Below, one piece after another: positions 25,789 through 64,000 of a stretch of 64,000 nucleotides of DNA. Source of the DNA: Ascidiella aspersa. Its lineage: Eukaryota. Location of the stretch: assembly GCA_963924565.1 (NCBI GenBank), contig OZ004608.1, positions 9,362,001 through 9,426,000 of the forward strand, written 5' to 3'. The notes beneath the pieces are model-generated. The model was not told where the DNA came from. It saw only the letters and a list, made by a program, of their open reading frames with translations, and did not search any database. How positions within the stretch are numbered: the first letter of the stretch is position 1; each line of letters begins with the position of its first letter. A program made the position numbers and the translations under genes.

Positions 25789-28700
25789 TCAATCTCTCAA
25801 CGACTGGCAAATGGGATCTTTGGGATGCAACCAGCAGTGTACCGACAGCATTCGGCTGCGATCCTTTTGAAACTTGAACGTGTTGATCGAGGGTGGAAGC
25901 TGTAGTGTGTTTTTGTACGCATAGCTTAAGGTCGCCTGTAAAAGTCAGATGAAACACGATCGGTCAAAAATCTGCTTAGGAAACTTCGATAAGTCAAATT
26001 TGTCCGATTGCACGATTTAGAGCAAAATGCAAATGATTGTGCTTCAATATAAGTTAGGTTCTAACTTAAGAGTTGACTAAATATACAACTTTTAACATTA
26101 TTAAATCCGCATTTATATTGCAGACGAATATTAAAGTAAACTTTTTTTCGAGTTTGTGGCATGAATAACACTGTACTACAGTTAAAATCAGGTGTATTCG
26201 ATTTAATATGACTTTGAATTTGGTTGTGTTTTAAGTTTTTCTTAGTTTAAAAGTAACTTGGGTTAACTTAAATTCTACATTTTGTTTAACCAATTGATTT
26301 GGATGGTCAAAACAACTTGTTTTAAACAAAGTATAGGCCTATAAATGTCGCAATAGCCAGTTGCATATGAAGCCTTTTATTTCAATTTGTGTTTTACTAT
26401 AGGTAGGCTACTTCGTGATAAATAGGTGGTCTCTATTAGACAGAAACACTATCAAAAAATGTATCAGCAACTTTTAATTTTTCTGCGGTTGTTCAATTAC
26501 GGTTGACGATATATTAACGGCACCAGGCCCGGATCTTGGAGGGGGACAACTGATCTTGCCCGCACCCCTTGTTGTTTCTACGAAGGCCTTGATTGTTGTT
26601 TTTACGAAGGACTTGACTTTTACGTAAGTTATTTTTTTATATAAAGACTTTTCAAATTCAAAATGACTTGTTTACAACACTGCTTGGCATGCTTTATTCC
26701 AAAGTTCTTACCGCGTTCATCCAGTCCGACTCGTTAAGCGTTTCCAGCTTCTCACGGTGTGAATGAAATCGGAACGACTCGACGAATGGAACCTTCAGCA
26801 TGTAGGTGATGACGTAACCGAGGGTGCAATCGTCTGTGTTAGAAGCCAGGTTTTCACACGCGTTCACGAAAGTCCCATTTCTATAAAAATAGATTTTTCG
26901 ATTTTGGAATTGAAAAATATTTTTTTCAAAATCTACACCTTCTGTGGATGACAACAGACTTGATTAATAACAGCGATCTTAGGGGTCCGTAACTCATTTG
27001 TCTGTACAAACTTGGCAAGCAGATTGTCTTATCTTCTTTTCTTTCAACCTCTCCAATTATATTTTCCCTTTTCGCTTTACCATCACCATTACATCTTGCC
27101 ATTACATTACATCATTACATCTGGTTACATCTTCCAACATTTGGGCAGTAGGATGGCCCACTTTTAGTGACATATACTTTTTAACTTATATTTACGCATT
27201 TCGCTTTAAATCCTGTTGTTGTTTTTACTTTCTTATTGATTGCTACCAACCAGTTTTTCGTTTGCACTGCTTTTTTTTATTACGTCAGAAAAAAGTAAAC
27301 AATAGAAAAGAGTAAAGAATAGATCCAAAGGCTAAAATATCAAACAGGGTTACGCAATTATTTGGCTACAAAAATCGCAACCTAAACCTAATCTTACCCA
27401 CAAATCGGGTTCATTCTTTGCCACAGGGTCCTTGTAATGCACAATCCTGCCCCGCCATGCGCAAACTCATATTTCTGGTACCCTTTATTCGTCCATCGCT
27501 GTAAAATAAAATATTTCGGGCAATCTAACGCTTTAAGGCAAGGCCTGTACGACTGAATGTACGTAGAGCCTTATTTGTATTAAATTGAACACAAACTTAC
27601 TACTAGCACAAAAAAAACAGTTAGTTTTAAAAGTCATTGTGACATATGCTAATTTCCTTTTTATACCAACCTAAAACTGTTGTAAATCTTTTTCACCTAG
27701 GTACATTGTACAGATCTGTAAAATGTAGCTTGATAATGAATTTCAAAACCAAAAAGGTCGAGTAGATCGATATCAACTTGTTTAAATATGTTTCGCTCCG
27801 AACTTGTATTATCTTTAGGTAATGTGACTGAGAAGTAAATTAAAACATCATTTATAAAAGGTTTTACTCAGGTTTTTAACCCTTGAGTTTTTTTGTTTAT
27901 AAAAGGTGGGGCGCAATTCTTATATTTCTAATAGAAACTTGACCTTTTCGGCTTTGAAAGTCATTATCAAATTTTAAACATGTTTTAATAAATTCATCAC
28001 CTTGTGAAATGGCACGCTTTTTCTGCCTAGGTAGATGGAATCGCTTGCCCGATATTGGTTAAGTACTTCCAGTAGATGATCCACGTTCACGTAGTTGTCA
28101 TCATCGAAACGGCACCACCACCTTGTGTAATTGAAATGGTAAACGAAAGGCACAAAACACCTTGTCTTATCTCTAAGGATCAGGGAAAGTAATCTGTCAT
28201 GTATACAACTGGTTGCTTTGTAGAAAACTGGTGACTGCACAATTCTGATTTTAGAAGTGGGGATATAATTACAAACTCGGCACGAAAACCTGGGTTTGTG
28301 ACCATTATAAAAGCAACCGATTTTCAACAAAGTTTTTCACAAAAAATAGACAGAAATATCTTTAAACCTTCCCATGCCAAAACATGTGTGGGCAAAAATT
28401 CCTTTTTTGTGGTTTTCATTTCGTTGATGGTCGCGATGCTCAGTGTTGTAATGACTTAAGTCAATGACTTGACTTAAGTGCACTTAAGTCACTGTTTTTA
28501 AATGACTTGACTTGACTTAAGTCATTTGGGCAAAATGACTTGACTTGACTTAAGTATTTCAGACAAGTGACTTGACTTGACTTAAGTCTTTTGAACAAAT
28601 GACTTGGGTTTGAAATAAAGCAACTATTTTTTTGGTAAGATTAAGCTATTTGTCCAATTTTTGTACAAAAAACAAATTGCTTGCTATATGTTCCGTTTTC

Positions 28701-31700: not shown

Positions 31701-33257
31701 GTTTACTAACTGTCAACTGTTCAATTGTTAAGCAACTAAGCAACAGCCAGATTGTCAAAAAACAAATATGGCAAAACAATGGACTTTGTTACGACAATAA
31801 TCGATTAATTTTACCCTTTGAAATGTGACATGCGGCAGTTTTTACAAGTAGAGCTTATAATTAGGGAGGTCAATTTCAGAACACTTTACAACCAGTTCTA
31901 AATGTGAGCCGGGTCCAAATCATAATAGACATCCCCAATTTATATACAAAAATGCTCGGCAACATTTTCAACGTATTTTTTTTTTAGTTTTTATGAAATT
32001 CCTCTGCTGAACTCATAAAATTCCTCCCTAGGGAGGAATTCCTCCTCGGTTGGGAACCACTGATTTAGAATATAGGTATCGAAATTATGTAGGCAATTGT
32101 ATAAAAAGGGCTGTCAGTGTCGCTTATTATTGTTGCACGGAATATTTATCGTTTGTGCGTGCGATTTTGTTTCTATATCACATCGTTTGCAACGTCTTTG
32201 TTCTTTTCACTTATTTTCCCCTTTCGTGAAGTATATCGTTTTATCTACATTTCCTCTATTGAATACAGTTTGAAGGCATTTCGGGTAGCGCTTGGCTTTC
32301 GCCAAATTGATAAGTGGGGCACCTGAAATTCGTGTAACACTATCAGTGTGTAATTACATGCTACACTGCGTTCGAACCTTTCGTGACTTTTCCCGCAGCT
32401 TGTATTGTGCATGCGACCGCCGCTTTTGCGTTGGTATTCTTCATCGTTCTCGTCCGTGACAAAGTAGATCTACAAGAGCAGTATTATAATGACATCTGCC
32501 TAAGCCAGTGATTTTTAATCTGTAAGTAATATCCCCAACGAATAATTGATATTTTCCCACAATAATATCGGATGATATATATTAACCATTAAAAAGCCAA
32601 CATTAGTATTCAACTTTCAGTTTGGAACTTTTGATTGTTTATTTGAATGAAAATTAATACAGTCCAATTATAAATTGCACCAATCAATTCTTTCTTGATT
32701 ACTTAGGTAGAAGTGAACGTAAGGTTTAGAAGAAGTGAACGTAAGGTTTGTATAAAATAAAGAATGTCATTAGACAAAATGATTCATTAAAACATGGCTT
32801 ATCTTGAACTGGGTTAGACAAGGCTATGTATTTATACCATCTTTTCTTCAATAGATTTACTTCGAGCAAAGTGCAGCTTTGTAGGTATAGGACGTTTGAC
32901 ATGGACGAGACTAAAAAGGGGTTCACGAATAAAACCATTTAAACAGTTCTTGCCAATCTCTTTTATGGTTATATTGGTATAACTAACCTGGTCCCTCGAA
33001 ATGTGCTTAAACCACGTGTTGAGAATTATCTCCAACTTGGTTCCGTGATTCTTTTTACAAGTTTTAACTGTGAACAAAACGTCGCTTAACAAGGTCTGCA
33101 AAGTATTAACTCCTTCCTTTTCCTTTTGGAGATGCGGTTTCACTTTGTCGATATTATAAACGGCAAACAGAGTACAAAGCGTCACCGCAAGAAATCCGAG
33201 GCGAATAAGACTCCGTTTTTTCCTCAAAAATTCCATTAGACTCGTAGTTGACAGCAT
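25789..33257 (-). CDS. Fringe-like beta-1,3-N-acetylglucosaminyltransferase (GT31), copy 1, 7 exons, ~320 aa
   Basis: Exons (minus) 33257-32988, 32469-32378, 29095-29033, 28121-28001, 27498-27398, 26880-26712, 25935-25789 = 963 nt in frame. Type II TM anchor; motifs VKT..NH, WWCRFDDDNYVN (DxD), FAHGGAG, DDCTLGY, FHSH, SVHCWLHP, all typical of the Fringe family. Confidence 0.92.
28441..28930. mobile_element. MITE with internal (TGACT)n microrepeats
   Basis: TIR CAGTGTTGTAA / TTACAACACTG; imperfect ~8-bp TSD (GCGATGCT). Empty site at ~42240 and ~57907. Confidence 0.8.
29798..32062 (-). mobile_element. hAT (Buster/Charlie-type) DNA transposon with frameshifted transposase, in Fringe copy 1 intron 2
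   Basis: 15-bp TIRs CAGTGGTTCCCAACC / GGTTGGGAACCACTG; 8-bp TSD ATTTAGAA (29790-29797, 32063-32070) with central TA. Transposase pieces ~29929-31598 carry DES, CTDGAPAM, CMLH, TRWLS and STYLCESGFS motifs. Empty site at ~59298 in copy 3. Confidence 0.95.
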
Positions 33258-37515: not shown

Positions 37516-40500
37516 TTAATCCTTCAACGACTGGCACATCGGATCTTTGGGATGCAACCAGCAGTGTACGGACAGCATTCGGCTGCGATCCTTTTGAAAC
37601 TTGAACGTGTTGTTGGAGGGCGGAAGCTGTAGTGTGTTCTTGTACGCGTAGCTTAAGGTGGCCTGTAAAAAGTTGCCAAAACACGATCGGTCAAAAAACC
37701 GCCTCGAAATGTTCGATAAATGAAAATTTATCAGATTCCACGATTTAGAGCAAAATGCAGATAATTCCGATTTGATGTACTTGTGAAAAGCTGGTGTGCT
37801 CTAACATGAGTTGGATTCTTACATCAGATTTGACCAAAAATCCGACTTTTTGAGTTAAACTTAACTAGTTAAAGGCAGGGTTATTCGATTTCACAATCTA
37901 AAAATGTATCTGCAGCTTTTAATATTTCTGCAGTTGTTTAACTACGGCTGCTTTATAACCCAGGGTGGTATATGAACGGCACCAGGGTCGGTTCCAGAAG
38001 GGGAACACCTGACCATGCCCCCCTCCGCATTGTGCGAACCGATAAAATCTTGTTATGTAACTTTTTTTACAGTAACGCCTCTCCAACCTAAAATTTAACA
38101 AAATACTTTAACAGTGTGGAGCTATTAATTTAACTATTTTTGACCTAATGTTTCGATGTAACTCTTTGATGTTAACTCTAAATACGTTTTCATAGCTCCC
38201 CCAAACAAAATCCCGAATCAGCCCTCGGAAGACCACACTGCATATTTGTTTAGAATGATTTTTTACTTACAATGAAACACATTTATCGCACGATGCAGTA
38301 ATAACCACCTTACGCAGTGCCGTGCTTTCTATAAAAGTTGTATTTCCTTTCAAACAACGGCTAAAACACGGACTGGCGAAAGCAACAAGGCCACCACACG
38401 TTGTTTAATATCTGCAGTGGACTCTGTTCACCGATAAACGTGCAAAATAGCGTTCGCACCAATCTGTTGATATTGATCGTTTTTTTACATTTGAAACGGA
38501 GATGTTCAATCTTTTACCATTTACGTATTATGTGGCGAAAACATTTGTTTTGTTTATAGCGGGCTTACTAACCAAAGTAATGAAATTATTATCTACATTT
38601 TATGAAAAATATTGCAAATACATTGCTTTTTGTGTGAATTACCCTTGCGAATTATTTATGTAAACATTTAGCTTTATAATTTTGTTAATGTCCGGCGAAG
38701 TGAGAACAGAAGGTTAATTGTGTTAAATGAGGCAAATTGCTTGGTGCTTCGATGATAATCGTCAGTAACGCATATCGATTATTATGTAATCCATATATTT
38801 ACTTTCGACGACCTGTCAAATGTTATACAGGCCTTAGTAGGGGTTTCGCTCAATTTCAGTCAGGGGTGAAAGAAGAGCTGTTTTTTTAAAGGAACGATGA
38901 AAATTTTCTTAACGAAACGCATAAAAACTTCAGAGACGACGTCACAAGTTAAAGTCACAACGGGATAAGAAGCTTTAAAAAACCCGAGGAATTCCAGGTA
39001 ATAGCGGGACGGCCTGGTGAAGAAGGGTTATGACCCGCTAAAAAGTCAAGTTTTTTACCAGTTCGGTGTAACGGAAAAAATTATTTAAGCGAAACCCAGT
39101 TTCGGACCATTCCGACTTACTTCCACTACTCATTACAATACAGCATAAGTATAACTTTCCCAAAAAACATTAAAATGGGGGATTTACGGGGACATGAAAG
39201 GTATCTCGGAACAAAGTACGATGCTAAACATTAAGTTGACTACACTGCAATTTAAATTTACATTAAAAGTCATTAGCAGCAATTATTCATGGCTCTACCA
39301 TTCACATTCCATAGAAAACATTTCCACCTATAAAAACCGAACATTTTAATCGCAGGCTTATATGGAATTTTGTGTTGATTTTACTTTGGCTCAAGTCATT
39401 ATGTCAAATAATTTGGTTTGAGATTAGTTGAGTTTACGAAATATTTAAAAAAAAGGTTGTTTATTATCTCAATTTTTGCAAGTAAATTAATTTGCTTGCG
39501 ATGTGTTGCCTACGTTAGTTGAGATATTGCTAATGTGCAATAAGTTTACCGATTTTTCTTACTTTGAAGTTTTATTTTTATGTTAATGACTAAAAGTTGG
39601 CTTTATCTAATAATGACTTGACCGGGACTTAAATTGCTGTTTTTACGAAGGGCTTGATTTTGACTTTAGTTATTTTTCTTGACTGCGACTTAGGCAATTT
39701 CAAAATGACTTGTTTACAACACTGCTTGGAATGCTTCATTCCAAAGTTCTTACCGCGTTCATCCAGTCCGACTCGTTAAGCGTTCCCAGATTCTCAATGT
39801 GTGAATGAAATCGGAACGACTCGACGATGGGAACTTTCAGCATGTAGGTGATGACGTAACCGAGGGTGCAATCGTCTGTGTTAGAAGCCAGGTTTTCACA
39901 CGCGTTCACAAAAGTCCCATTTCTATAACAAAACATATTTTTTAAATTGGAAAAATTTCCGTTTTGTGGTTGACAATGTTTTCCATTTATTAAGATAGTT
40001 TCTAGGGGTCCGTAATATGTTTGTCAGCGTATTTTAAAACTGGACAGCGTATTTTAAAACTTTTTTTAACCTTTTCCTATATTTTTTTCGCATTTTCCAC
40101 TTTTTGACCGATTGCATTTTTTCCAACAATTTTATATTTACATTGTATTGTTTCCTGAGAAAAACTGTGCCGTTGGCAAAATATATTTTTCTTAACATTT
40201 CATAAAATCACTGGCTTTGAATACCAGAAAAAAAAAGAATAAATAGGATAAAGGTATGAGTTAACTTCATGCTATACCGTAAAAATGTATGATGTTTCTC
40301 AAAACAAATCCTTGATCATCTCTGTTAATTCGGGTATATAGGTGCGGTATATGATTAGTAAATCAGAGGTGCACAACCGTTTAGCTATAGATGGTGATAT
40401 AAACAGTCTGTATTTTACTCACGGCCGCCAGTAGTCTAGTTGCCCCATATTATTGAATCGGCGCCGCTACCTGACGTCAAGTAATAGTATGGTATTCGTC

Positions 40501-43500
40501 TGATACTAGGGTGATATAAGCGCCGATCCAATACCAAAGTACTTTTAGTAATGACAAATAATATCGATTGTAAGTGCTGTAAGTACATCACGTACAAGGT
40601 TTATCCCTATGCGAGTTACATATATTCGCGTTTTATTGGCCCGTTTTTACATCCGCGCACGTACATTTGAGTGTTCTACATGCCGTCGGCTTGACAACAG
40701 ATATATTGCCTATACATTTCAGTTCAGGTGTCGCTTGGAGCCTCTAAAGAAGTGTTTCTTAAACAGGTGAATGATTCACTGCAGGGTAAAAAGAATTTTT
40801 TGGTGGCCCATGATTGCCATCCTGTTTTGTTTTTCAATTTAACAAAAAATAGAAAAAAATAAAAAATAAAAAATAAAATAAAATAAAAAAAATTATTAAA
40901 AAAAAAGTTATTACAAAAAGGCCCAGGACTGCCATTCTCATATAAAACGCATTACGGTCGGACCAGCACTGCCATCATAGAATACTTGAGTATATGCAAT
41001 TTTCTATTGTGTGCTGTTTGAGTTCCAAGCCAGCTCATGGAGGTTTGCCACTTAGTCTTTTAGGCCTTCTGGTGGGATTCACCAAGGGGAATTTGGCAGC
41101 TCGAAATTCTTTGCGTAATATCTCCGGAAGTAAACAAGATTTTTTTTTTTATACACATGAAACAAGGGTGAATGAAATCTGGAGATAGATGCTATAGGGT
41201 AAACAAAACTAAAAAAGTTTAAGAAGCACTGCTTTAAGGCATTTCGGGATAGGCGTGCTGTGCTGGTTCAAATATAGGCAACATGTCATCACGAGGGCAA
41301 CTTTTTTTCACATAATGGTCCTTTTTACCCATTTTTCAAAAGGACCATATGTCGGACAAGGTTACATAGTTTTGCGGCTAGAAAAAACGCAAACAATATA
41401 CACACTACTGTGTTCATCTTACCCACAAATTGGGTTTATTCTTTGCCACAGGGGTCTTGTAATGCACACTCCTGCTCCGCCAGTCGCAAACTCATATAAC
41501 TGGTACACGTTGTTTGTCCATCGCTGTAAAATAGAAAAGTTTGGCTTTGTTAAAGCTAATCTAACGTTAAAGGCAAATACTGTAATAGCGCCTTATTTTT
41601 AATAAATTCAACATAAATTAAATACTTGCTCACCAAAAAAACACTGTGACATAATTTACCTTTTACACCAACCTAAAACTGCTGCGATAATTTTACACCT
41701 AGCTATATTTATGTACGGCTCTGTAATGGAGCTTGATAACGAATTTCAACGCCGAAAAGGTCGAGCAGATCGACATAATCTTGATTAATACGTTTATATA
41801 CGAAGTTGTATCTTTTTCTGGAAATGTGATTGAGAACGAGAAGTAAATTAAAACATTACTTATAAACGGTGGGGCGCAATTCTTATAATTCTTATCGAGA
41901 CTCGACCTTTTCGGCTTTGAAATTTATTATCTAATTTTGAACATGTTTAAATAAATTCATCACTTTGTGAAATGGCACGCTCTTTCTGCCTAGGTAGATG
42001 GAATCGTTTGCCCGATATTGGTTAAGTACTTCCAGTAAGTGATCCACATTGACGTAGTTGTCGTCATCGAAACGGCACCACCACCTATGTATTCAAATGT
42101 TAAACGAAACGCACAAAATATACTTTATCTTTTCTATTTAAGTAGCGTTGTAAGCGGGGAGAACGATTATACCGTTCCAGGATAAAAGTATAGGCAAAAG
42201 AACTTACTTTATTCATGGTTTACGTTTCGTTAACGGTCACGATGCTTGATAGTAAAGCAACGGTGTCAATTTGGGGCGTTCATTCTTATATTAAGTCTTC
42301 GGTATGCTATTTATTAACAAAAACTATGACCAACTCACTTTTTGTTCGCAAAAGGGAGAAACAAATCGAATTCTTCGCCAGTTTTGCAGCACAAGTCTTT
42401 CCTGAAATGAAAACGAATTTAAAATTCAGGAAAACAATATTTGCAAAATGAATTTTTTCGCGCCAAATATGTAGAAATAAAATAGACAATCCTATTAAAA
42501 TTACTATTTTCATCATTTTAATATTATATAAGTCGTTTTAAAATCGGTAATGAGCGTCTACACTTATTTTGTAAAGAAAGCAAATTTTAAACGATTTTTT
42601 CACATCGCATTATTACTACAACATGGTTTATTCAGTGATTTAAACTATTTTCGTTATGATCATTGAAATTAATTTTGCGCCTTTTATTATTTGATCTACG
42701 TTTCCTCTATTGAATACAGTTTGATGGCAATATGTGTGGCGCTTGGCATCCGCCAAATTGATAAGTGGGGCACCTGAAATTCGTGTAACACTATCAGTGT
42801 GTAATTACATGCTACACTGCGTTCGAACCTTTCGTGAGTTTTCCCGCAGCTTGTATTGTGCATGCGACCGCCGCTTTTGCGTTGGTATTCTTCATCTTCC
42901 TCGTCCGTGACAAAGTAGATCTACAAGAGCAGTATTGCAATCACATCTGCCTAAGCCAGTGATTTTTAATCTGTGAGTAATTATGCACAACGAACAATTG
43001 ATATTTTTCCACAAGAATATCGGATGATATATTTAACCACTAAAAAGCCAACATTAGTATTCAACTTTCAGTTTGGAACTTTTGATTGTTTATTTGAATG
43101 AAAATTAATATAGTCCAAATATAAATCGCACCAATCAATTCTTTCTTGATTACTTAGGCTTAAAATGACTTGGTAAAGATCGTGGTAGAAAAAAAACTTA
43201 ACTTAGTGTATTTGGCAAAATAAATAGGCAAGATAAGAAGTTGGATTGGTTACAGAATTGCCCCTTAAGCTTTACTTCAACTTGGAAATGGTTTCCCCCA
43301 AAGTTTACATTGGCTATGGTTTGAATTGGGCGGGCACTAGAAGTGAACGTAAGGTTTGTATAAAGCAGGGTTCGGCAACCTACGGCCCGCGGCCTATTTG
43401 ACAATAGGCACAACAAAGTCTATTTTACATACTTTTTGACTATAAAGTGCGAACAATTTTTTTATTTTTTTTTTCGCTTTGCGCGAATGGTTTAAATATG

Positions 43501-50239: not shown

Positions 50240-53200
50240 TCAATCTCTCAACGACTGGCAAATGGGATCTTTGGGATGCAACCAGCAGTGTACCGAAAGC
50301 ATTCTGCTGCGATCCTTTTGAAACTTGAACGTATTGTTCGAGGGCGGAAGCTGTAGTGTGTTCTTGTACGCGTAGCTTAAGGTCGCCTGTAAAGGTAAGA
50401 TAAAACACGATCGGTCAAAAATCTGCCTCGGAAACTTTGATAAGTCAAATTTGTCCAATTTCACAATTTAGAGCGAAATGCAAATAAATCAAATTTTGTT
50501 GTATTTTGTTACAAGCTGGTGGATCTCAATATAAGTTAGGTTCTAACTTAAGATTTGACGAAAAATTATACTTTCAACATTGTTAAATCCACATTTATAT
50601 TGCCGACTATAAAGTGCAACTAATTTTTTTCGAGTTTATGGTGTGAATAGAACTTAACTACTGTTAAAAGCAGGTTTATTGGATTTTTGGTAACTTTACA
50701 TTTTGTTGTGTTGTAAGGTTTTAAAAGTTTGGTAGATAGTCTTCTAAGTTTAAACTAAGTTGGGGTAACTTAAATTCTATATTTACTTTAACTAAATGAT
50801 TTAGAATTTAGATTGTCAAACCCACTTGTTTTAAACAGATCATAGGACTTTACAAATGTCACAATATTCAGTTAAGTACGCATCAAACGTTTTATTTTAA
50901 ATTTTTTTTACTATATTTCATGATAAGTAGGTGGTCTTTATTAGACAGCAACACTATCAAAAATGCATCAGAAGCTTTTAATATTTTGCGGTAGTTGAAT
51001 TACGGTTGCTTTATAACCAGGGATGACATACTAACGGCACTAGGGACGGATCCAGGAGGGGGGCACCTGACCATCCCCCCACACTTCGCGTTGCGCGGAT
51101 CGATAAAATCTTTGCCATGTAACTTTTTTTTAAAGTAACGCCTCTCCAACCTAAAATTTTAACAAAATACACGAACTGTGTGGAACTCGTCTTTTGACCG
51201 AAATTATTGTTATTCCGCTATGAAAAATATTGAAAATACATTGCTTTTTGTGTGAATCACCCTTGCGAATTGTTTGTGTAAACATTTAGCTTTATAATTT
51301 TTATAGCCTAACCGAGAAGTAAGAACAGAAGGTTAATTGTGTTACATGAGGCGAATTGCTGATAGTGCTTCGATGATAATCGTCAGTAAGGCATATCGAT
51401 TATTATGTAATCAATATATTTACTTTCGACGACCTGTCTAATGTTATACAGGCCTCAGTAGGGGTTCCGCTTAATTCCAGTCAGGGGTAAAGCAGAATTG
51501 TTTTCTTTAACGAAACGCATAAAAATTTCTGAGACGACGTCACAAGTTAAAGTCACAACGAGATAAGAATCTTTAAAAAACCCGAGGAATTCAAGGTAAT
51601 AGCGGGATGGTCTGGTGAAGAAGGGTTATGACCCGCTAAAAAGTCAAATTTTTACCTGTACGGTGTAATGGAAAAAAATATTTTACCGGAACCCAGTTTC
51701 GGACTATTCCGACTTACTTCCACTACCCATTCGCATTCCATAAAAAACATTTCCACCTATAAAAACTGAAGATTTTAATCGCAGGCTTATATGGAATTTT
51801 GTGTTGATTTCCATTTCACCTAAGTCATTATGTCAAATAAATTGGTTTGAGATTAGTTGAGATGACTAAATATATTTAAAAAAAGGTTGTTTATCCCATT
51901 TTTTGCAAGTAAATTAATTTGCTTGCGATGTGTTGCGTACGTTAGTTGAGATATAGCTCATGTACAAATAAGTTTACCGATTTTTCTTACTTTAAAGTTT
52001 TATTTTTATGTTAATGACTAAAAGTTAGCTTGCTCTAATAATGACTTGACCGGGACTTAAATTACTGTTTTTACGAAGGACTTGATTTTGACCTTAGTTA
52101 TTTTTCATATACTTGACTGCGACTTAGGCAATTTCAAAATGACTTGTTTACAACACTGCTTGGCATGCTTCATCCTAAAGTTCCTACCGCGTTCATCCAG
52201 TCCGACTCGTTAAGCGTTCCCAGCTTCTCAATGTGCGAATGAAATCGGAACGACTCGACGATGGGAACTTTCAGCATGTAGGTGATGACGTAACCCAGGG
52301 TGCAGTCGTCCGAGTTAGAAGCCAGGTTTTCACACGCGTTCACAAAAGTCCCATTTCTATAAAAAATATATTTTTTAAATTGGAAAAATATTTGCCAAAT
52401 TTACGTTTTGTGAAGTTTATAGAGCTCTTCTGGCAAAGTAACTTTTTATTCCGACGTTTCGACGTTCCGTCCTATACAGGTCGTCTTCATCAGGGTAAAT
52501 AACACTGAATGTGACTAGTACAGTGCACAATAAACAAAGGAAAAAATAATAAAGAAAAAAGAATGGAACGCAAGCAACGTTACAACGCAACGCAAACACC
52601 GCGCGATAACTCTAACCTTTAAGCAGGTGCCTGTAGCACGCTGACAGCAACACGTCTGTTTTGATGTTCATTGTGTTGCCCCGTTGGTGAATATTCCATG
52701 ACTCAAGAAATAGTCTTTTCCTGTAGTCAGGCTCCCGGGCCACAACAGACGCCGCATTGAAATCAATACGGTGGCCCTGTGACACCGCGTGATTGGAGAG
52801 GGCCGACTTCTTCGCGTCGCTGTTGGCAACATCCCGTTGATGTTCTTTTCGACGGGTGTTTAGTGACCTTCCAGTCTCCCCGATATATACTAACGGACAT
52901 TCGGCGCAGGGAATAGAATATACAACACCACGTTGTTCAAAGGTGTTGATTGGATCTTTCGGGTGACTCAGTAGCTTGCGGAGAGTATTGGCAGGTTGGA
53001 CGCCAACCGCTACACCAAAGTCACGCAACATACCGCAAAATATCCGTCAGTTTTGGTATGTACTAGGGTGTCACAAAACCCTCTGTTTTTGGATGAGTCA
53101 CCTGTTTGGGACAAGTTTCCCGTCGATCAAGGAGAATCCAATTGGGGTAGCCATTATATTGCAGGGCTTTGCGAACGTTTGCCAGTTCCGCCTCGCAGTC

Positions 53201-56200
53201 GTCACTATGTGTGCACAAGCGTCGCGCCCGATTTTTTAGGGAACGAACCACCCCTTTTCTGGTATGTGGGGTGATGAGATCGAAAATTGAGATACCTGTC
53301 GGTACTCGTTAGCTTGTGGTACACTTTCGAGTACAAGACACCGTCATCGGTTTTTGTGTCCTGAACATCTAAAAATGGAAGACAGTCTACCGATTGGAGT
53401 TCCATGGTAAACAGAATGCCTGGTTGCGCCTCGTTGAGATGCCGTAGAAATGCCTCAACCTCGTTATTATCAATGACACAAAACATGTCGTCAACATATC
53501 GCCGCCAGAATCTTGGTGGGTAGGCAAATGTTGATAGGGCTTTTTCCTTAAGCGCTTTCATTGTCATGTTCGCGACAACCACAGAGACCGGGGAACCCAT
53601 CGCTGTGCCTTGAACCTACTGGCAAAAGCTTCCCCTAAATGTTGAAAAGGATTGCTCCAAGTAAATCCGCAGACCGTCCACAATATCCAACGGGGGCCAT
53701 GGTGTTCTGTCTTTAAGGCTATAGTCGTTTATAATCCTGGATAACGCGATGTTCATTGCCAATTCAACAGGAACACTTGTAAAAAGTGACACAACGTCAT
53801 ACGATACCATTACCTCTTCGTTGGACAGGGGCGGCACCTGTGCTATCTCTTGAACAAACTTGGACGAGTTCGAAACAATCCATTCTGTATTGCCCACGAG
53901 CGGAGAAATAACTCTCGCTAGGTACTTCGCAAGGTTGCAGGATTGAGTACCAACAAACGAAACAATTGGTCGCAGAGGGATGCCATCTTTGTGGATTTTT
54001 GGTAATCCATTGATGTGCGGGGCGGAGCCGTCCGTGCTATGCAGTTGATGGAATGCGGCTTCAGAAATGCATTGCCTCTCTGTGTGTAATTTCCCCACAA
54101 ACTTATTAAGGACGCGTTCCGACTTACGTGTTCACGCTTTAAACGTTTGTAAGTCGAAGTATCCAGTAATAAGTCAGACATCTTCTTGTCGTAATCTAAG
54201 CGGTGCATGATAACAGTACAGTTCCCTTTGTCTGCGGGTAAGATCGAGATGTCTTCATTTGACCTCAAACGTTTTGTGGTTGACAATGTATTCCATTTAT
54301 TAAGATAGTGGTTTCTAGGGGTCCGTAATATATTTGCCAGTGTATTTTAAAACTGGCAAGCAGGTTGTATTATCTGTTTTAACCTCTTTCTCTATTTTTT
54401 TTCGCATTTCCATCATCACTGATTACATTTTCCAACACTTCACTTTTATTGATACACAATTTGCAACTTCTATTTAGTGATGACTGATGTCACTTTAAAT
54501 CCTTCTGTTGTTTTAACGTTTTAATTGATTGCTACCAACCAATTTTATGTTTACATTGTATTGTTTCCTGCGAAAAACAATGCCTTTGGCGAAATATATT
54601 TCTCTTAACATTTCATAAAATCACTGGCTTTGAATACTAGAGAAAAAAAGAATAAATAGAATAAAGGTATGAGTTAACTTCATGCTATGCCGTAAAAATG
54701 TATGATGTTTCTCAAAACAAATCCTTGATCATCTCTGTTTATTCGGGTATATAGGTGCGGTATATGATTAGTAAATCAGAGGTGCACAACCGTTTAGCTA
54801 TAAATGGTGATATAAACAGTCTGTATTTTACTCACGGCCGCCAGTAGTCTAGTTGCCCCATGTTATTGAATCGGCGCCGCTACCTGACGTCAAATGATAG
54901 TGGTGTTCGTCTGATACTAGGGTGATATTAGCGCCGATCTAATACCAAATTGATAAAGTACTTTGAGTAATGACAAATAATATCGATTGTAAGTGCTGTA
55001 AGTAGATTACGTACAAGTTTTATCCGTATGCGAGTTGCATATATTCGCGTTTTATTGGCCCGTTTTTACATCCGCGCACGTACATTTGAGTGTTCTACAT
55101 GCTGTGGGCTTGACAACAGATATATTGCCTATACATTTCAGTTCAGGTGTCGTTTGGAGCCTCTAAAGCAGTGTTTCTTAAACAGGTGAATGATTCACCT
55201 TAGGGTGAATACGATATTTGCAAGGGTGAACCAACCAAAAGGGGCAAATAAGGGTGAACCTTCAGAAATGGATGATAGCTTTGCAGTAAATCGACTACTA
55301 AACTGTTTTTTTTTTTGGCTAATTGTAATAGTAAAGTTGGTTTGCACTGAGTGTATAACTACAAAAACTTGGTGACTGTGTTTAGTGCTTTTGTAGCTTT
55401 ATATTTATGGACTCGAAAAATTGTAAATTTGCCATGATAAAACTTAGCTTGAGTTGATTAAAAAAAATCGAGAGAGTATTATGTCATGAGACAAAGGGTG
55501 AATGAAATCTGGAGATAAATGCTAGGGGTGAACAAAACTAAAAAAGTTTAAGAAGCACTGCTTTAAAGCATTTCGCGATAGGCGTGTTGTCCTGGTTAAA
55601 ATATAGGCAACATGTCATCACGAGGGCAACTTTTTTCACATAATGGTCCTTTTTAACCATTTTTCAAAAGGACCATATGTCGGACAAGGTTACATAGTTT
55701 TGCGGGTAGAAAAAACGCAAACCGTATACACACTACTGTGTTCATCTTACCCACAAATCGGGTTCATTCTTTGCCACAGGGGTCTTGTAATGCACACTCC
55801 CGCTCCGCCAGTCGCAAACTGATATAACTGGTACCCTTTCTTCGTCCATCGCTGTAAAATAGAAAAGTTTGGCTTTGTTAAAGCTAATCTAACGCTTAAA
55901 GGCAAATACTGTAATAGCGCTTTATTTGTAATAAATTCAACACAAATTAAATACTGGCTCACCAAAAAAAAACACTAAGTCATTGTGACATAATTTACCT
56001 TTTACACCAACCTAAAACTGCTGCGACAATTTTACACCTGGCTATATTTATGCAGGGGAAGTGCGGGAACCATGGAACATGGGGACCAATGGTACACTGG
56101 CATACCCCCTGTTGGCAGAACGAAATAAAATTTTGGTTGAGGGAATGAGATTTTGTGTACAGAACTTTTTCTAAAAAGTTCTACAGCGTGCTTTTGGAAA

Positions 56201-59200
56201 TGGTTGATTTATTCCAATTTTTCACTTTTCTAGGTGAAAAATGTACTTTTTAGCTTGATATTCGTACGGTGTTTTGATAGTCTTTAGGTAATTGTAAAGT
56301 AGTGAATATTATTTTGTGGAGAGAGGGGATTTCTAGGTACATGTTGAAAGTTAGTTTGATTAATTTGGTTCAGAGTACTTGCCATGAGTGTTTTTATTAA
56401 AAATGCGATTAGAGGACCTTTGGAACAGTCTGTTCCGTTGGTCTCTCGATCATTTTGTGATTGTATCCTTAGATTTTAAGGATAGCAGTATGCCAACTTT
56501 TAAGACAAGAACATCTAATAAGGGGTTGTTCAAAGGACCAGGGCTGCGGAGTCGGACTCGGGACTCGAAGGAGTCGGACTCGGGACTCGAGTAAGACCAC
56601 GTAAAACTACCAGAGTCCCTTGTCCGGCGTGCGCATGCGCAGTACCAAAAACCGATTTGCCGTCAATTGCAGTTTATTATAGCGGTATAGGATATGGTGG
56701 ATATTTTCGAACCATTTGTTGAGTGGCTTATATGACATCCCTATGAGTGGATTGCTAAATACCCACCGTATTTAGTTACATAAATTGGCGGAATACAGAC
56801 TGTAGAGTCAGAGTCGGACTCGGGACTCGACGAAATCGTACACTTGATTGACTATTATTATATTTGCAGATATGTTCTCATAAAACAGAAAAAAAAATTG
56901 ATATAACAAACCCCGGCACATTCTATTAAAAATAATAATAAAATATCTTTTAGCATTTTGTGCTTGTTTCCATGTGTTTTTATATTTATTTCTTAAAATA
57001 AATTTTCTTGTGTCACTATTTCTACACCATTAACTTAGTAGTTATGCACTTCTGGAATACCCACGTTTTTTATATTTATAAAAAAACTTAGAAGGATATG
57101 TCGGATTTCAATTATTTTTCCATGTAGGTACCCATAGCGGTAAGCTTTCCAAAGAAAATAACTGCGAGTGTTTTTGAGTTGTAGATATTACCGAAAAAAA
57201 CAAATCCGTTCCATGGGTCCCACACTTCCCCTACGGTTCTGTAATGTAGCTTGATAACGAATTTCAAAGCCGAAAAGGTCGAGCAGATCGACATAATCTT
57301 GATTAATACGTTTAGATACGAAGTTGTATCTTTTTCAGGCAATGTGATTGAGAACGAGAAGTAAATTAAAACATTACTTATAAACGGTGTGGCGCAATTC
57401 TTATAATTCTTATCGAGACTTGACCTTTTCGGCTTTGAAATTTATTATCAAGTTTTAAACATGTCTAAATAAATTCATCACTTTGTGAAATGGCACGCTC
57501 TTTCTGCCTAGGTAGATGGAATCGTTTGCCCGATATTGGTTAAGTACTTCCAGTAAGTGATCCACATTGACGTAGTTGTCGTCATCGAAACGGCACCACC
57601 ACCTATGTATTCAAATGTTAAACGAAACGCACAAAATATACTTATATCTTTTCTATATGGTTTTGTGAAAACAATGTAAGCGCTTTGTTGAAAACTGGTG
57701 GCTGCACAAATCTAATTTTTTAAGTAGCATTGTAAGCGGGAAGAACGATGAAAAAAGCGGCACGCCAACGGGCTTTTTAACCATTGTAAAAGCAAACCAA
57801 TAAATGTTTACCAATAAATAGACAAACACATGTTTAAACCGTCCCATGATAAAAGTGTAGGCAAAAGAACTTACTTTATTCATGGTTTACGTTTCGTTAA
57901 CGGTCACGATGCTTGATAGTAAAGCAGCGGCGTCAATTTGGGGCGTTCATTCTTATATTAAGCCCTCGGTGTGCTATTAATTAACAAAAACTATGACCAA
58001 CTCACTTTTTGTTCGCATAAGGGAAAAACAAATCGAATTCTTCGCCAGTTTTGCAGCACAAGTCTTTTCTGAAATGAAAACGAACTTAGAATTAAGGAAG
58101 AAAATCAATTAAAATGTACGATGTCCAGATATGCTTGACAATAATAGTATAACCCCTTTCAAACACTTAGTTAAAACAAAGTAGCAACTTTTTCCGCGCT
58201 TCGCGTGAATCCTATTGGTCTGTACGTGGCTGTTAGTCCGTTTGACGGTATCTCCTATTATCTGAAAGGCCCCGTTCAAATTCAGATTCAATTTATTTTT
58301 GCGCATGTTTGCAAACATCGAAAAACAAAATAACATACAGAATAACACAAGGACAGTTCGTATCATGGCAACCGTAATTAAAGTTTTGCAAACTTTGCCA
58401 ATGCATTTTTGTGCGCTAAATATGTAGAAATAAAAAAAAAAAAACTTTTAAAATCACTATTTTTACCAACCTAAACTAGATGTTGAAAATATTATATGAC
58501 GCTCATGGAAATGCAGCATTAAGCTTTTATGGCTCTCTAAGCTAAAAACGTTCCCGACCCCTGGTTTATAAGTTTCCGTGGGGTTAAAATTAATGTAATA
58601 TATGTCGTTTTATAATCGGTGATAAGCGTCTACACTTCTACGCCTATATAACATTTTTGTACAACGTTATACGCCAGAAAATGAAATGTTTGTGTTTTAC
58701 GTTAAAGAGTTAACATTGACGTAACATATTTCGTTTTACAAACGATGTTGAGAGTCTACATATTCCGGGCCGGACTCGGGACTCGACAAAATCGCACATT
58801 TGACCAGAGTCGGAGTCATTCGACAGTGGGGCGCTTTTTAGAAATTTTACTTGTTTCGTCATGCGAAGGTACTAGCCTTTGGAATACAGGCTCACGAATA
58901 CAATGGCGTCGTGTTTGTATATGTGGGACGTGTGCCCGCAGAGCGCATACCAGCCACCCCCGTAAACTAAATACAACAGAGATAACGCAAATAACCCGTT
59001 TATTGCGTGTGCTGCCAATGATATTATAACTACAGTTATACCTGTCCTATAGTATCTTTGGCCCGACTGTACATGTTAATTGTGCTTTAACATAATGTAC
59101 ATCAAACATGACACAACGAATTACTGAAAACGTTTTTTCAAATCGAAAAAATAATGTCTTTTCATCTTATTTTGTAAATAAGAACATTTTAAACGATTTT

Positions 59201-62200
59201 TTTTACATCGCATTAGTTATTACTATAACATGGTTTCTACAGCGATTTAAACTATTTTCGTTTTGATCATTGAAATTTGTAAAGTGAGTCAAGCATGATT
59301 TAGAACAGGGCTAGAAATTTAGTAGGAAATTTTGAAAGTATAGGGTTGTCAATGTCGCCTACTATTGCTGCACGGAATATTTATCGTTTGTGTGCGCGGT
59401 ATTGTTTCTATATCATATCGTTTGCACGTCTGTTGTTATTTTCACTTTGTTTCCACTTTTTTAAAGTATATCTCTTTTCCACTTTTGTACCGTACCTTTG
59501 ACGTTTTGTTTCTCATATATTTTTACCTTTTACTGTTTGGCAATAACTATCGTTACATTCGGGACTTACACCATTCTTTGCCTCCGTTTTGGTGGATCGA
59601 GAAACTGAAAGCAAATAAAGGCGGTTGGGTTTTGGGAAGGCTAATGTACGTTTTTAAACTATGGCATTGACGTTTAAACCCCTTTTTAGACGTTGGCCGC
59701 TTTTACTGTTTTACGCCTTTTATTATTATTTCATCTACGTTTCCTCTATTGAATAGAGTTTGACGGCACTTCCTGTAGCGCTTGGCATTCGACGTGATGT
59801 TAAGTAGCCTAGGGCTTCTGAAATTGGGTAACGCTACCAGTATATATACGTTGTGAGTCTTGTATTACCGTGTAGATGTCAAACTTAATGTTAGTACTTT
59901 AGGGTTCCCAAGAGCAGTTTGAGCAAGTTTTACCCATTCAAAAGTAGAATCTTGTCATTCAGCTTGATCGGTCGCTGAAATCTAATACGTATTTATTTGT
60001 TTAACGCCTTTTGTTAGTTTATTTACCATTCCTCAATTGAATAAAGTTTGAAGACACGTCGTGAAGTCTGGTTTTTGAACAAAACACAACCGTTTTTGAA
60101 CAAATGTTTGCATTTGTACAAGCCACGACATATTTTGCCTAAAATCCTACTTTGCCTCAATGGCAATTTTAGTCTCTCAGTCGAAACAAGTAATTTGAGC
60201 TAACATCGATCAGAACAAAGAGAATCAAATCTCTTTGGTCAGAAAACTTTAGGTGATTTTTATAGCCATTATTTTGCGCCTTTTGTTATTTTATCTACGT
60301 TTCCTCTGTTGAATACAGATTGACGGCCAAAATGTTAATTGTTCATCCGCCAAAATGTTAATTGTTCCGCCAAAATGTTAAAACACTATCAGTGTGTAAT
60401 TGCATGGTAGAATGCATCCGAACCTTTCGTGACTTTTCCCGCAGCTTGTATTGTGCATGCGACCGCCGCTTTTGCGTTGGTATTCTTCATCGTTCTCGTC
60501 CGTGACAAAGTAGATCTGCAAGAGCAGTATTGCAATGACATCAGCCTAAGCCAGTGATTTTTAATCTGTGAGTAATTATGCACAACGAACAATTGATATT
60601 TTCCCACAAGAATATCGGATGATATATTTAACCATTAAAAAACAAACATTAGTATTTAACGGAGTGTTGCTCTTCCAGCAGAATATATAATAGATCGACG
60701 TTTCGACGTGCAATACAGAACGTCTTCATCAGGATACTGACGTGACATGTAAAACTCTCGATCTATTATATATTCCGCTGGAAGAGCAACACTCCGTTAT
60801 ATATTATGCCTGGCAACAATAGCTTATTTCATTAGTAATTAACTTTCATTTTGGAACTTTTGATTGTTTATTTGAATGAAAATTAATACAGTCCAATTAT
60901 AAATCGCACCAATCAATTCTTTCTTGATTACTTAGGCTTAAAATGACTTGGTAAAGATCGTGGTAGAAAAAAAACTTAACTTAGTGTATTTGGCAAAATA
61001 AATAGGCAAGATAAGAAGTTGGATCTTTACAGATTTGCCCTTTAAGCTTTACTTCAACTTGGAAATGGTTTCCCCCAAAGTTTACGTTGGCTATATGGTT
61101 TGAATTGGGCGGGCACTAGGAAGTGAACGTAATGTTTGTATAAAGCAGGGTTCGGCAACCTACGGCCCGCGGCCTATTTGACAATAGGCACAATTAAGTC
61201 TATTTTACACACTTTTTGACTATTGTGACTATAGCGATTCGCGCGAATGATTTTAATATGCCCGGTTCGTTTACGCTTGATGCTGTATTTGAAATATATT
61301 AGCGTTTTTTTACCGTTGCGGCGTGGAAGGCTGACAAACGTATTCAAAAACATTGGACATATATTTTTTAACATTTTATTATTCTCAGCAATGTAATAAA
61401 AACTTGCAAGAAATTTAAAAGAAATGCCGGTATAAAAAATCGCGCTTGCCTCGCTCGCCATGTGCGCACGGATAGTAGTTTTATTACACTTTTCACAAGT
61501 AGTATGGATGAAGACGTGTGGACTCGAATATTAGCTTAGACCAAATAAACACTTTTTTTCGCGCTTTGCGCCAACACTGTACTACCTTCTTAAATGTAAT
61601 TGAACACGTTTTTAAGTGAAAAAAATTCAAAGGCTCGCCTGATTCACAGTTGTTCTAAAATTTTAGTAACACAATTTTTAGTTAACATTTTGTGCGGCCC
61701 ACATAGACCTTTCTGAGTTTAGTTTTGGCCCGCGACTAGAAAAAGGTTGCCAACCCCTGGTATAAAGGAATGTCATTAGGCAAAATGATTCATTGAAACA
61801 TGGCTTATCTTGAACTGGATTGAACGAGGCTATGTATTTGGACAAGCCTTTACTTAGGTTTACCTCGAGCAAAGTGCAGCTTTGTAGGTATGGGACGTTT
61901 GATTTAGCCGAGGCAAAAGGTGTTCCCGAACAGAGCCAATTAAACACTTCTTATCTCTATTATATTTATGTTTGTATAACTAACCTGGTCCCTCGAAATG
62001 TGCTTAAACCACGTGTTGAGAATTATCTCCACCCTTGTTCGGTGATTCTTTTTACCAGTTTTAACTGTGAACAAAACGTCGCTTAACAAGATCTGCGACG
62101 TATTAACTCCTTGCTTTTCCTTTAGGAGATTCGTTTTCAATTTGTCGATATTATAAACGGCGAACAGAGTACAAAACCCAACGGCAAGAAATCCGAGGCG

Positions 62201-62233
62201 AATAAGATTCCATTTCTTCTTCATAAACTTCAT
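50240..62233 (-). CDS. Fringe-like glycosyltransferase (GT31), copy 3, 7 exons, ~313 aa
   Basis: Exons (minus) 62233-61985, 60515-60424, 58068-58006, 57602-57482, 55851-55751, 52356-52188, 50386-50240. Same motifs; starts at the second Met of copies 1/2. Confidence 0.91.
52413..54268 (-). mobile_element. 5'-truncated Penelope-like retroelement (RT + GIY-YIG endonuclease), frameshifted, in Fringe copy 3 intron 5
   Basis: ORF pieces with GLPKIHK..PLRPIVS, SYDVVSLFT, MGSPVS, RYVDD and GVVYSIPC..YIGETGR..R..EH. 10-bp direct repeat ACGTTTTGTG at 52403-52412 and 54269-54278. Empty site at ~39960 in copy 2. Confidence 0.93.
52447..52500 (-). ncRNA. Minimal type I hammerhead ribozyme motif in the Penelope 3' tail
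   Basis: Minus strand reads uuacc-CUGAUGA-a-GACG-accuguauaggacggaa-CGUC-GAAA-cGUC-ggaauaa: conserved core, stem II GACG/CGUC, minimal stem III, GUC cleavage triplet. Confidence 0.75.
55169..55560. mobile_element. hAT-type MITE in Fringe intron 5 (same insertion at ~40750-41231)
   Basis: TIR CAGTGTTTCTTAAAC / GTTTAAGAAGCACTG; TSD CT(C/T)TAAAG. Confidence 0.75.
56055..57231. mobile_element. Non-autonomous TIR element at a TA site in Fringe copy 3 intron 4, with a nested GAGTCGGACTC-family repeat (~56540-56830)
   Basis: 24-bp TIR GGGGAAGTGCGGGAACCATGGAAC / GTTCCATGGGTCCCACACTTCCCC. Empty site TTATGTACGG at ~41710. The nested family also occurs in CYP-A/B intron 4. Confidence 0.8.
60661..60829 (-). 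mobile_element. ~170-bp Penelope-derived non-coding insertion with 42-bp inverted repeats, in Fringe copy 3 intron 1
   Basis: IR arms 60657-60698 and 60758-60799 (1 mismatch). Flanking direct repeat CATTAGTA(T/A)TTAAC at 60647-60660 and 60830-60843. Absent from the same site in copies 1 and 2. Confidence 0.8.
60692..60737 (-). ncRNA. Minimal type I hammerhead ribozyme motif
   Basis: Minus strand reads guauc-CUGAUGA-a-GACGU-ucuguauugc-ACGUC-GAAA-cGUC-gauc: core boxes, 5-bp stem II, stem I auc/gau. Confidence 0.75.
61146..61759. mobile_element. hAT-type MITE in Fringe copy 3 intron 1 (same insertion as 43366-44040)
   Basis: Same TIRs and TSD GTATAAAG. Confidence 0.85.
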
Positions 62234-64000
62234 TATACCTTAATGCTATGTGATTTGCTAGAGCAGCAAAATCACACTCAAATCGAACGACATTACGCAA
62301 CCTACAGGTTCAAACATCTCTAGTTTCAGAAAAAATAGATTATGTGGTTAGGATGTGCGTGATTATACGAAAAATCTTTGAAAAATTTTCAAAGCATCCT
62401 AAAACAAGAATGAGTTCAGTTGATATTTAGATTACAGGTTAAACAAATCATAAAGCATTTTGTAAAAAATGAAAATCGAGACGTCATACCACTGAAATTA
62501 CTATGTCAGATTGCATGATTTTCGCTTTCTTAGCGTGCTATGTTTGATCTGATGTAATTGTTCTAAGTGAGACAAGACGTTAGGTCAAAATTTGTCACAA
62601 TTTTAGTGAAAGTATCAGAAAATTGTTGGTATCATAATAAAAAAAAATATTAAAATATAATAAATGATCAGTTTGCTAGCTTTGCTAGACTATTGTGCTG
62701 TTACTGACAAATTTAGATAAACATAAGCATGTGTATCGACCCAAATTTCCCTTTCTATCAGTCAAACTCATTTTGACGTCTTGTATTCAATAAACCGACA
62801 CACTATTTTTATGTACGCAAGCAGTACAGCGTCTAAAGCTTACTGCCTGTTACAACCTGCGCTTGTCAACCAGCGTTAACCAACAGTACGTCTCCATAAA
62901 AGCTAAAGCACTGCCAAACTCAAAGATTAGAACCTAACGAGTGATGACCTAAGTCCTTTTGAGACCTGTTTGTTAAATTTCCAGCTGAAAAATCGGCTTG
63001 CCAATATCCACTTAAAGATAACTTGTACGCACTGTAAAAATATGCCCATCAACACCCAGCCTGTGGCTAAAATATGTTTATTTTGGCGTTAAAATTATCT
63101 GCCAAAATTATTTTGCCGACTAGCCCTTGGTCCCAAACACTAACCAAACCGACACCCTTTAAGGGCTCTGCACACCAGACACGGTGACGGCTGGCGATAA
63201 GCGGCGTCAACGGTTGATCGCGTTTCTTCCGCCTGTCTGGCCAGTTTGTTGGGCAATATGTTTCTACACATTTTCATTCCGCTTTTGATCCTTGTACTGG
63301 CTGCTACCAGAATCATATATACAGGGAGAATCCTGCACCAATTGTATCAGCACTTCATTGAATTCCATTGTTTTTTAAGCAAAAGTTTATCTAAACAAAA
63401 CTCTACAACACAACACCAAAATAATTAAATCAAACCAACATTATTGCACCTTTCATCGTGTCTTTCATTCTTTTTGCGACACTTTAAAAAAAATATTAGG
63501 GAAAGACAAACTGTACCCTTACCATAAATAAATTTTACATAAACCTTCTATCCTCAAGTAAACTAACTTAAAACTACGAAATTGTCCCGTTGCAACAAGG
63601 TTCTGCACACAGCTCTTCAGTCTGCAAGTAGTGCGGCTGACGGAAAAGTTAAATCTGATTTAACTTTATTTATATATATATATAAACCTATATAAACCTA
63701 AACAAACACAAATACGGTATTCTATGTCGACACTCTTTGACAAACTAGACACGAGTCAATTTCAAATACTTTTTGACTTTTTAACTACATAAGTGTGAAA
63801 AATCTTTGTAAGTCCGGGTTGTTTGCGGTTTGATGCTGTCTTTTGGACTAGATCAGAGCTTTTTACCTGCGCTCTGGAAGGCTGCCAAAGTGCCAAATGC
63901 GTCGCGGACAACGGAAAGCGTATTCAAAAATATTGGAGATAAATATTTTAAGACTTTTTTTATTTTTATTTTCGGCAATTTAATAAAAACATGCAACGGC

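Follow-up and report, generated by a model that had tools for sequence, protein, structure and literature searches.

Minimal type I hammerhead ribozymes (min-HHR) have been described in the pseudo-LTRs of Penelope-like elements of metazoans (Cervera and De la Pena 2014, PMC4209133). According to that report they have a core with one unpaired base between A9 and G10.1, a G10.1-C11.1 pair, a helix II of 7-8 bp, a short helix I and a palindromic 15.2-16.2, and they lie behind an RT/GIY-YIG ORF in thousands of mostly single copies, with close pairs on opposite strands. In the experiments reported there, cleavage was absent with minimal hammerheads tested singly and low with dimers, each of one motif repeated. 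A Penelope hammerhead from the anole is described as cutting only with its protein (PMC11167929), and one of nine Xenopus retrozyme dimers cut in the assays of a bioRxiv report (10.64898/2026.07.22.740005). In the accounts cited here, insertions of Penelope/Poseidon elements have an inverted pLTR, an optional tail of 30-40 bp and a target duplication of 8-10 bp (PMC3846280, PMC8557442, PMC11167929). The closest intronic case is the CPEB3 ribozyme, reported to be HDV-like, conserved and active as a monomer, with a half-life of 2-3 min and a position ∼9.9 kb before the next exon (PMC10274809).

Two motifs in a Fringe-like gene of the ascidian Ascidiella aspersa, here called A and B, share the core, helices, placement and genomic abundance listed above for min-HHR, and close opposite-strand pairs occur in this genome too. 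Unlike the published dimers, however, they belong to different families, and their helix I arms do not match. As with CPEB3, each is a motif of a self-cleaving kind located in an intron and sense to its host gene, but both are private to one paralog, lie close to the next exon and are predicted to need a partner. Among the papers listed by a literature search, with most subscription journals outside its coverage, none concerned cross-family hammerhead dimers in a host gene. The elements are of a known kind; what is new here is the host genome and the two families.

Two hammerhead cores in Fringe copy 3

The window, i.e. the whole stretch of DNA analysed, comprised 64,000 nt (GCA_963924565.1, contig OZ004608.1, positions 9,362,001-9,426,000, forward strand; Table 1). 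Its third Fringe-like gene, copy 3, has an intact reading frame and intact splice sites throughout; introns are numbered by coding exons only. A sequence-only reading had proposed that copy 3 carries two sense-strand minimal type I hammerheads of Penelope type, that both are absent from copies 1 and 2, that they arrived as independent insertions, and that they could complement each other as dimer partners in cis. The first three proposals held, given pattern matches on the minus strand, core features and element anatomy of Penelope type at both sites, uninterrupted target sites in each of the other copies, and separate families each with its own target duplication; on computational evidence, complementation in cis was not supported.

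Table 1. Coordinates of the Fringe copy 3 gene, the two insertions and their empty target sites (positions of the window).
Feature	Position	Strand	Remarks
Fringe-like gene copy 3	50243..62233	-	Pfam PF02434; seven coding exons, open frame ∼312 codons
Copy 3 coding exons 1-4	62233-61985, 60515-60424, 58068-58006, 57602-57482	-	
Copy 3 coding exons 5-7	55851-55751, 52356-52188, 50386 to stop near 50243	-	
Minimal hammerhead core A (family A)	52453..52493	-	Intron 5; predicted cut 3' of 52453
Element A, 5'-truncated Penelope-like element, family A	52413..54269	-	Intron 5; ∼1.86 kb; reading frame broken by frameshifts and stops
GIY-YIG endonuclease remnant	52612..53046	-	PF01541, E 0.0013, below curated cut-off
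Reverse transcriptase remnants, separate frames	53205..54131	-	PF00078, E 0.004 for 53208-53615, below curated cut-off
Target duplication upstream of element A (9 bp)	54270..54278	-	
Target duplication downstream of element A (9 bp)	52404..52412	-	
Empty element A target site, Fringe copy 2	39960..39968	-	In copy 1, diverged counterpart at 26938-26946
Minimal hammerhead core B (family B)	60697..60732	-	Intron 1; predicted cut 3' of 60697
Stub B, Penelope-like, family B	60657..60829	-	Intron 1; 173 bp; inverted tail, then short sense piece with hammerhead and shorter tail
Inverted copy of family B tail	60758..60829	-	60758-60806 pairs with 60650-60698, which includes the cut site and the helix I 3' arm
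Target duplication upstream of stub B (10 bp)	60830..60839	-	9/10 letters equal to downstream copy
Target duplication downstream of stub B (10 bp)	60647..60656	-	
Empty stub B target site, Fringe copy 2	43052..43061	-	Copy 1: 32601-32610

Both sites read CUGAUGA-A-GACG..CGUC-GAAAC-GUC on the minus strand. Core A is located in intron 5 (55750-52357), 96 nt upstream of the 3' splice site, and core B in intron 1 (61984-60516), 181 nt upstream of the 3' splice site. The pattern CTGANGA-N14-40-GAAACGTH was matched twice in the window against 0.05 matches expected, a count reached by none of 100 shuffles; the bare CTGANGA box was at chance level (21 seen, 17.3 expected). Each site has the core CUGANGA...GAAA..UH (here CUGAUGA and GAAACGUC), a helix III without a loop and a palindromic 15.2-16.2. 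Both families carry an extra A bulge between 9 and 10.1, a G10.1-C11.1 pair and a helix II of GACG/CGUC plus three upper pairs. The two window copies are damaged in upper helix II, core A by a private 5-nt insertion and core B by a private A-to-U change that disrupts the closing pair of loop II; neither change occurs in the other copies fetched from the respective family. The computed energy cost of these changes is almost nil, and neither catalytic core is damaged.

The minimal form was defined by a descriptor and not by Rfam models. No Rfam hammerhead model matched A or B in the covariance-model scan that the sequence-only reading had put forward as a check, with cut-offs of E≤5 for the window and E≤10 for site A by itself. 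A match to MIR7994 at 60663-60793 (49 bits, threshold 100) was rejected as a microRNA, as it reflects only a long hairpin.

Anatomy and abundance of the two insertions

By their domains and end structure, both insertions are assigned to endonuclease-positive Penelope-like elements (of the Penelope/Poseidon or another clade), with a hammerhead in the 3' pseudo-LTR, an optional tail, inverted or truncated ends and a short target duplication. It had escaped the sequence-only reading that core A terminates such an element and that core B lies inside a 49-nt inverted repeat (94%). In element A the order is reverse transcriptase followed by a C-terminal GIY-YIG domain, with RVT_1 and GIY-YIG scores below the curated cut-offs because the element is broken; the part of the reverse transcriptase remnant at 53619-54131 had no Pfam match. 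The element is ∼94% identical to younger family A copies, themselves 97-99% alike, and at least 64 genomic matches to it were obtained from the 40 candidates scored out of 289.

Stub B is built differently. Its sense part and its inverted arm both match family B loci, several of which have GIY-YIG sequence upstream, 57-69% identical to that of element A in three of them (L004, L007, L009). The site B hairpin is not considered a MITE or retrozyme, since its upstream arm is the reverse-complemented family B tail and the motif lacks a tandem arrangement. Like published Penelope/Poseidon insertions (PMC3846280, PMC8557442, PMC11167929), the elements here show 5' truncation, a copy of the 3' end inverted at the 5' side (stub B), 3' ends at two preferred points ∼30 nt apart and duplications of 9-10 bp. 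Stub B differs from those insertions as described in being only 173 bp long and in having one hammerhead rather than two, since its inverted arm ends at the cut site. At 12 of the first 30 loci among 186 exact-core matches, where two pairs of loci represent one insertion each, a copy of the tail in inverted orientation lies no more than 1.5 kb upstream, the layout described for Penelope-like elements in PMC3846280 and PMC8557442.

Genome-wide, 3,395 generic hammerhead motifs were counted, compared with 29 for a reversed control pattern. With so many motifs, ∼150 same-strand pairs as close as A and B should occur by chance (∼152 expected within 8.3 kb under uniform spread); at least 12 were counted among the first 100 matches listed, some of which may be two ends of one element. 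The probability of two sense motifs in one given 12-kb gene is nevertheless only ∼0.002, which counts against reading them as inert passengers.

Predicted folding and pairing of the motifs

Folded as monomers, neither motif gave a hammerhead, and stability was ordinary (z -0.7 and -0.4); with a helix III lacking a loop, neither is predicted to fold as a monomer. Within helix I, one pair is altered on both sides between families A and B (C-G in 9/19 and U-A in 10/19 distinct rows), as covariation a single event. Cognate arms are weak and not clearly above shuffled ones (equalled by 38/200 and 26/200 shuffles). In a double hammerhead the helix I arms are exchanged between the partners. Which motifs can act as partners depends on this helix, so cross-family motifs in one transcript would not be expected to complement each other. 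Helix I between A and B arms comprised just 1 bp per site and did not surpass shuffled arms (92/200 and 169/200 shuffles), with homodimers at 7 (A-A) and 5 bp (B-B), and double-hammerhead energies were -8.9 (B-A), -16.5 (A-A) and -13.3 kcal/mol (B-B). The cleavage nucleotide of B is predicted to be paired within its own inverted repeat (P ∼0.999); the computed cost of freeing its arms is 22.8 kcal/mol when the inverted arm is present and 7.6 kcal/mol when it is left out. The proposal that A and B act as mutual partners in cis is not supported by these predictions: a heterodimer would need helix I between the partners' arms and both motifs free to pair, and the models predict neither. As a pair predicted not to fit for cutting, the two motifs are unlikely to control Fringe. 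Even homodimers lie 11-13 kcal/mol higher than the misfolded monomers, which, with the weak cognate helix I, makes the model silent on activity in cells; nearest-neighbour energies leave aside core tertiary contacts, Mg2+ and proteins.

It is highly probable that two insertions from different Penelope-like families left the motifs as their hammerhead-bearing 3' ends, which are predicted not to pair with each other and are likely inert passengers removed by splicing. Target-primed reverse transcription would have placed each of them once copy 3 had separated from its paralogs, with A arriving truncated at its 5' end and B arriving as a stub whose tail is inverted. A heterodimer would lack helix I, B would be sequestered by its own inverted repeat once transcribed, and splicing 96 nt downstream would outrun whatever slow cutting remained at A. 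The conservation seen for CPEB3 is lacking, as the motifs are absent from both close paralogs and the motif A region (89-92%) is no better conserved than the body of element A (94-95%). A and B are ordinary transposon relics and, as they stand, of little meaning, being two more copies of a described retroelement motif. If cutting of a host gene by such motifs were shown, it would settle whether metazoan Penelope hammerheads cut in vivo and turn the ∼3,400 motifs of this genome into potential regulators.

Alternative readings and RNA evidence

Site A alone could be cut, in trans by family A RNA or with the element protein as chaperone, wherever the family is active, with copy-3 output falling as a side effect. 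Its helix I arms fit family A over 7 bp, no inverted arm was found within 1.5 kb of the site, young family A copies exist, and a protein-assisted Penelope hammerhead has been published (PMC11167929). Against this, pairing in trans amounts to 4 bp plus weak arms, and the 3' splice site follows shortly, slow intronic ribozymes being without splicing effect according to Fong et al. 2009, as cited in PMC10274809. Moreover, the account of the anole element describes no RNA-seq reads with ends at its cut site, and places the protein-binding region at the ORF start (PMC11167929). We regard such cutting as improbable, and give similarly little credence to site A as a trans-activated trap, in which RNA or protein of young family A copies would complete the hammerhead 96 nt before exon 6 and cut the pre-mRNA, the dose of this one Fringe paralog following transposon activity. 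If true, the trap would make helix I a family-specific address for thousands of motifs in the genome.

The insertions may also act on copy 3 without catalysis, through splicing, RNA editing or small-RNA silencing by way of the 1.86-kb element or the intron 1 hairpin. Both lie near 3' splice sites (element A 56 nt before the intron 5 acceptor), and the hairpin at site B is stable (-87.8 kcal/mol, z -15.6). Yet splice sites and frame are intact, and copy 3 holds several other insertions (introns of 11 kb compared with 6-6.5 kb in the paralogs), so nothing singles out A and B; such an effect is quite unlikely.

A search of sequencing runs listed no RNA data set with a match; one same-species RNA run (X9) was aligned to the window. 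Its read ends did not accumulate at the predicted cut position of A or of B, but coverage around the motifs was only ∼2-3, with reads from other copies mixed in, and ordinary RNA-seq is blind to such ends, for which reasons the read-end pattern was set aside as evidence. No X9 splice joint was among the 15 listed of 263 joints. Contigs from X1 and X2 extended 28-30 letters into element A from the flank, where 31 were needed to call the insertion. X9 reads carried the window letters at 6 places that differ from copy 1 or 2, in an animal not necessarily carrying the insertions.

That motifs B and A pair in cis over 8.2 kb into a double hammerhead that cuts the copy-3 pre-mRNA, as a paralog-specific control, is extremely unlikely: both are sense with intact cores, they have in common the self-complementary ACGU for helix III of a dimer, and intronic ribozymes can lower a host mRNA (CPEB3; PMC10274809), but helix I, which must join the partners, is no longer than in shuffled arms, the cut site and 3' arm of B are predicted to be paired (P≥0.998) with an arm transcribed earlier, intron 1 is over 181 nt past B and transcription reaches A 8,244 nt later, equally close same-strand pairs are common in the genome, and copy-3 RNA extends to the 3' UTR, with X9 sense reads at mean depths of 5.8 and 9.8 over the last exon and 3' UTR.

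Hammerhead motifs in the third Fringe copy

On its minus strand the window carries a tandem array of three Fringe-like genes (Pfam PF02434), each of which splices to an open frame of about 312 codons, with 92–94% coding sequence identity among the copies. A genome search with exon 1 recovered only these three at ≥78% identity. Separate from them is a large tandem cluster of Fringe-like exon 1 sequences (28 of 37 genome matches, 42–60% identity; G000 C2:28.70–29.20 Mb). About four tandem genes on the plus strand (window 1–22000) are presumably cytochrome P450-like, as named by a heme-binding motif (ORFs 4326–4790 and 10921–11259).

The sequence-only reading placed two minus-strand hammerhead motifs in copy 3, absent from copies 1 and 2, and both observations held: the minimal-hammerhead pattern matched the window only at motifs A and B (0.05 matches expected from 100 shuffles), and the target sites of both insertions are uninterrupted in copies 1 and 2. 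Motif B lies in intron 1, with the acceptor 181 nt downstream, and motif A in intron 5, with the acceptor 96 nt downstream, at a spacing of 8,244 nt. Introns total 11 kb in copy 3 versus 6–6.5 kb in its paralogs, and other insertions have also been taken up by copy 3.

Features in and beside Fringe copy 3 (window coordinates)
Feature	Position	Strand	Length	Basis or detail
Hammerhead motif A	52453–52493	minus		sequence match
Hammerhead motif B	60697–60732	minus		sequence match
Insertion A	52413–54269		1,857 bp	9-bp flanking duplication; motif A at 3' end
Insertion B	60657–60829		173 bp	10-bp flanking duplication, one mismatch; contains motif B
Further high-copy repeat insertions	55210–55485, 56052–57232, 61170–61760, 63070–64000			very high DNA read depth

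Origin of the insertions

Motifs A and B are minimal hammerheads of metazoan Penelope-like elements, a known kind to which these two members are new, and were left by two unrelated insertions. Insertion A still shows pieces of a reverse transcriptase and of a GIY-YIG domain, their frames broken, arranged as in Penelope-like elements that bear an endonuclease. At least 64 matches to it were obtained in the genome (40 of 289 candidates scored). The window element is likely older than its six long relatives, because it is ∼94% identical to them while they are mutually 97–99% identical. Identity in its motif region (89–92%) does not exceed that in the rest of the element, and 5 nt inserted in helix II of motif A are private to this copy. 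In family A, three independent insertions share almost the same 5' truncation point (window 54269, L032:1501, L033:1505), which suggests a preferred reverse transcription stop or a defined RNA 5' end; loci L034 and L035 extend further upstream.

The sense part of insertion B matches a second family, whose members have GIY-YIG sequence upstream, and at its 5' end the family B tail recurs in inverted orientation, making a 49-nt, 94% inverted repeat. An upstream inverted tail occurred in 12 of 30 fetched loci (the first 30 of 186 exact-core matches), and insertion B shares this layout with Penelope-like elements described in PMC3846280 and PMC8557442.

Transcription of copy 3

In about 6% of X9, one same-species RNA sequencing run, reads oriented as Fringe sense RNA should be reached a mean depth of 5.8 on the last exon of copy 3 and 9.8 on the 3' UTR. 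Reads matched the window at 6 sites where copy 1 or 2 differs (7–17 reads each, 0 other letters), some of which also vary among individuals; identity to copy 3 in that region is 91% for copy 2 and 84% for copy 1, both under the 95% cut applied to reads. Transcription of copy 3 in this sample therefore continues beyond both motif positions, in an animal that may or may not carry the insertions. None of the 15 joints listed, of 263, came from X9.

Predicted catalytic activity

Published activity of such hammerheads is low. Minimal motifs did not cleave as singles and did so little as dimers (PMC4209133), and 1 of 9 Xenopus retrozyme dimers cut (bioRxiv 10.64898/2026.07.22.740005). The anole Poseidon hammerhead cleaved only with its protein, and zero RNA-seq reads ended at its cut site (PMC11167929). 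Slow intronic ribozymes left splicing unaffected (Fong 2009, as cited in PMC10274809). We predict that motifs A and B are very probably inert. Cutting of motif A alone, with assistance, is improbable, and non-catalytic effects of the insertions on splicing are improbable to the same degree.

The earlier proposal that A and B serve as mutual dimer partners in cis was not supported computationally. The dimer model of PMC4209133 joins two motifs through their ACGU palindromes; its geometry implies that every active site is built from one motif's 5' arm and its partner's 3' arm. A and B arms form 1 cross pair per site, versus 7 (A-A) and 5 (B-B) in homodimers, and computed double-hammerhead energies were −8.9 (A-B), −16.5 (A-A) and −13.3 kcal/mol (B-B). 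The cross pairs have no advantage over shuffled arms, which did as well in 92/200 and 169/200 cases. In context, the inverted arm is predicted to sequester the cut site and 3' arm of motif B (P≥0.998); the computed cost of opening them is 22.8 kcal/mol when that arm is present and 7.6 when it is absent. Three points weigh against the reading of the motifs as inert: cognate helix I arms are likewise weak (matched by 38/200 and 26/200 shuffles), homodimers computed at 11–13 kcal/mol above misfolded monomers, and the energies omit tertiary contacts and proteins. The A-B heterodimer is highly improbable.

Abundance across the genome

The 308.6-Mb genome holds 186 copies of the exact core common to families A and B (control 0) and 3,395 matches to the generic hammerhead pattern (control 29). 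Assuming uniform spread, about 152 same-strand pairs ≤8.3 kb apart are expected; 12 were counted among the first 100 matches listed, some of which may be the two termini of a single element. With P = 0.002 for two sense motifs in one named 12-kb gene, the A/B pair looks striking locally; genome-wide it is ordinary.

Tails differ between the two families, with the terminal ∼25 nt in common (fetched loci L002–L037, 30–75 nt past the cut site). These copies end at either of two preferred points ∼30 nt apart, resembling the two reverse-transcription start sites described in anole Poseidon. Many more minimal-hammerhead families with differing helix II sequences appear among the matches listed (G000 C1:0.3–6.9 Mb), and the first helix II pairs co-vary between them, as judged by eye.
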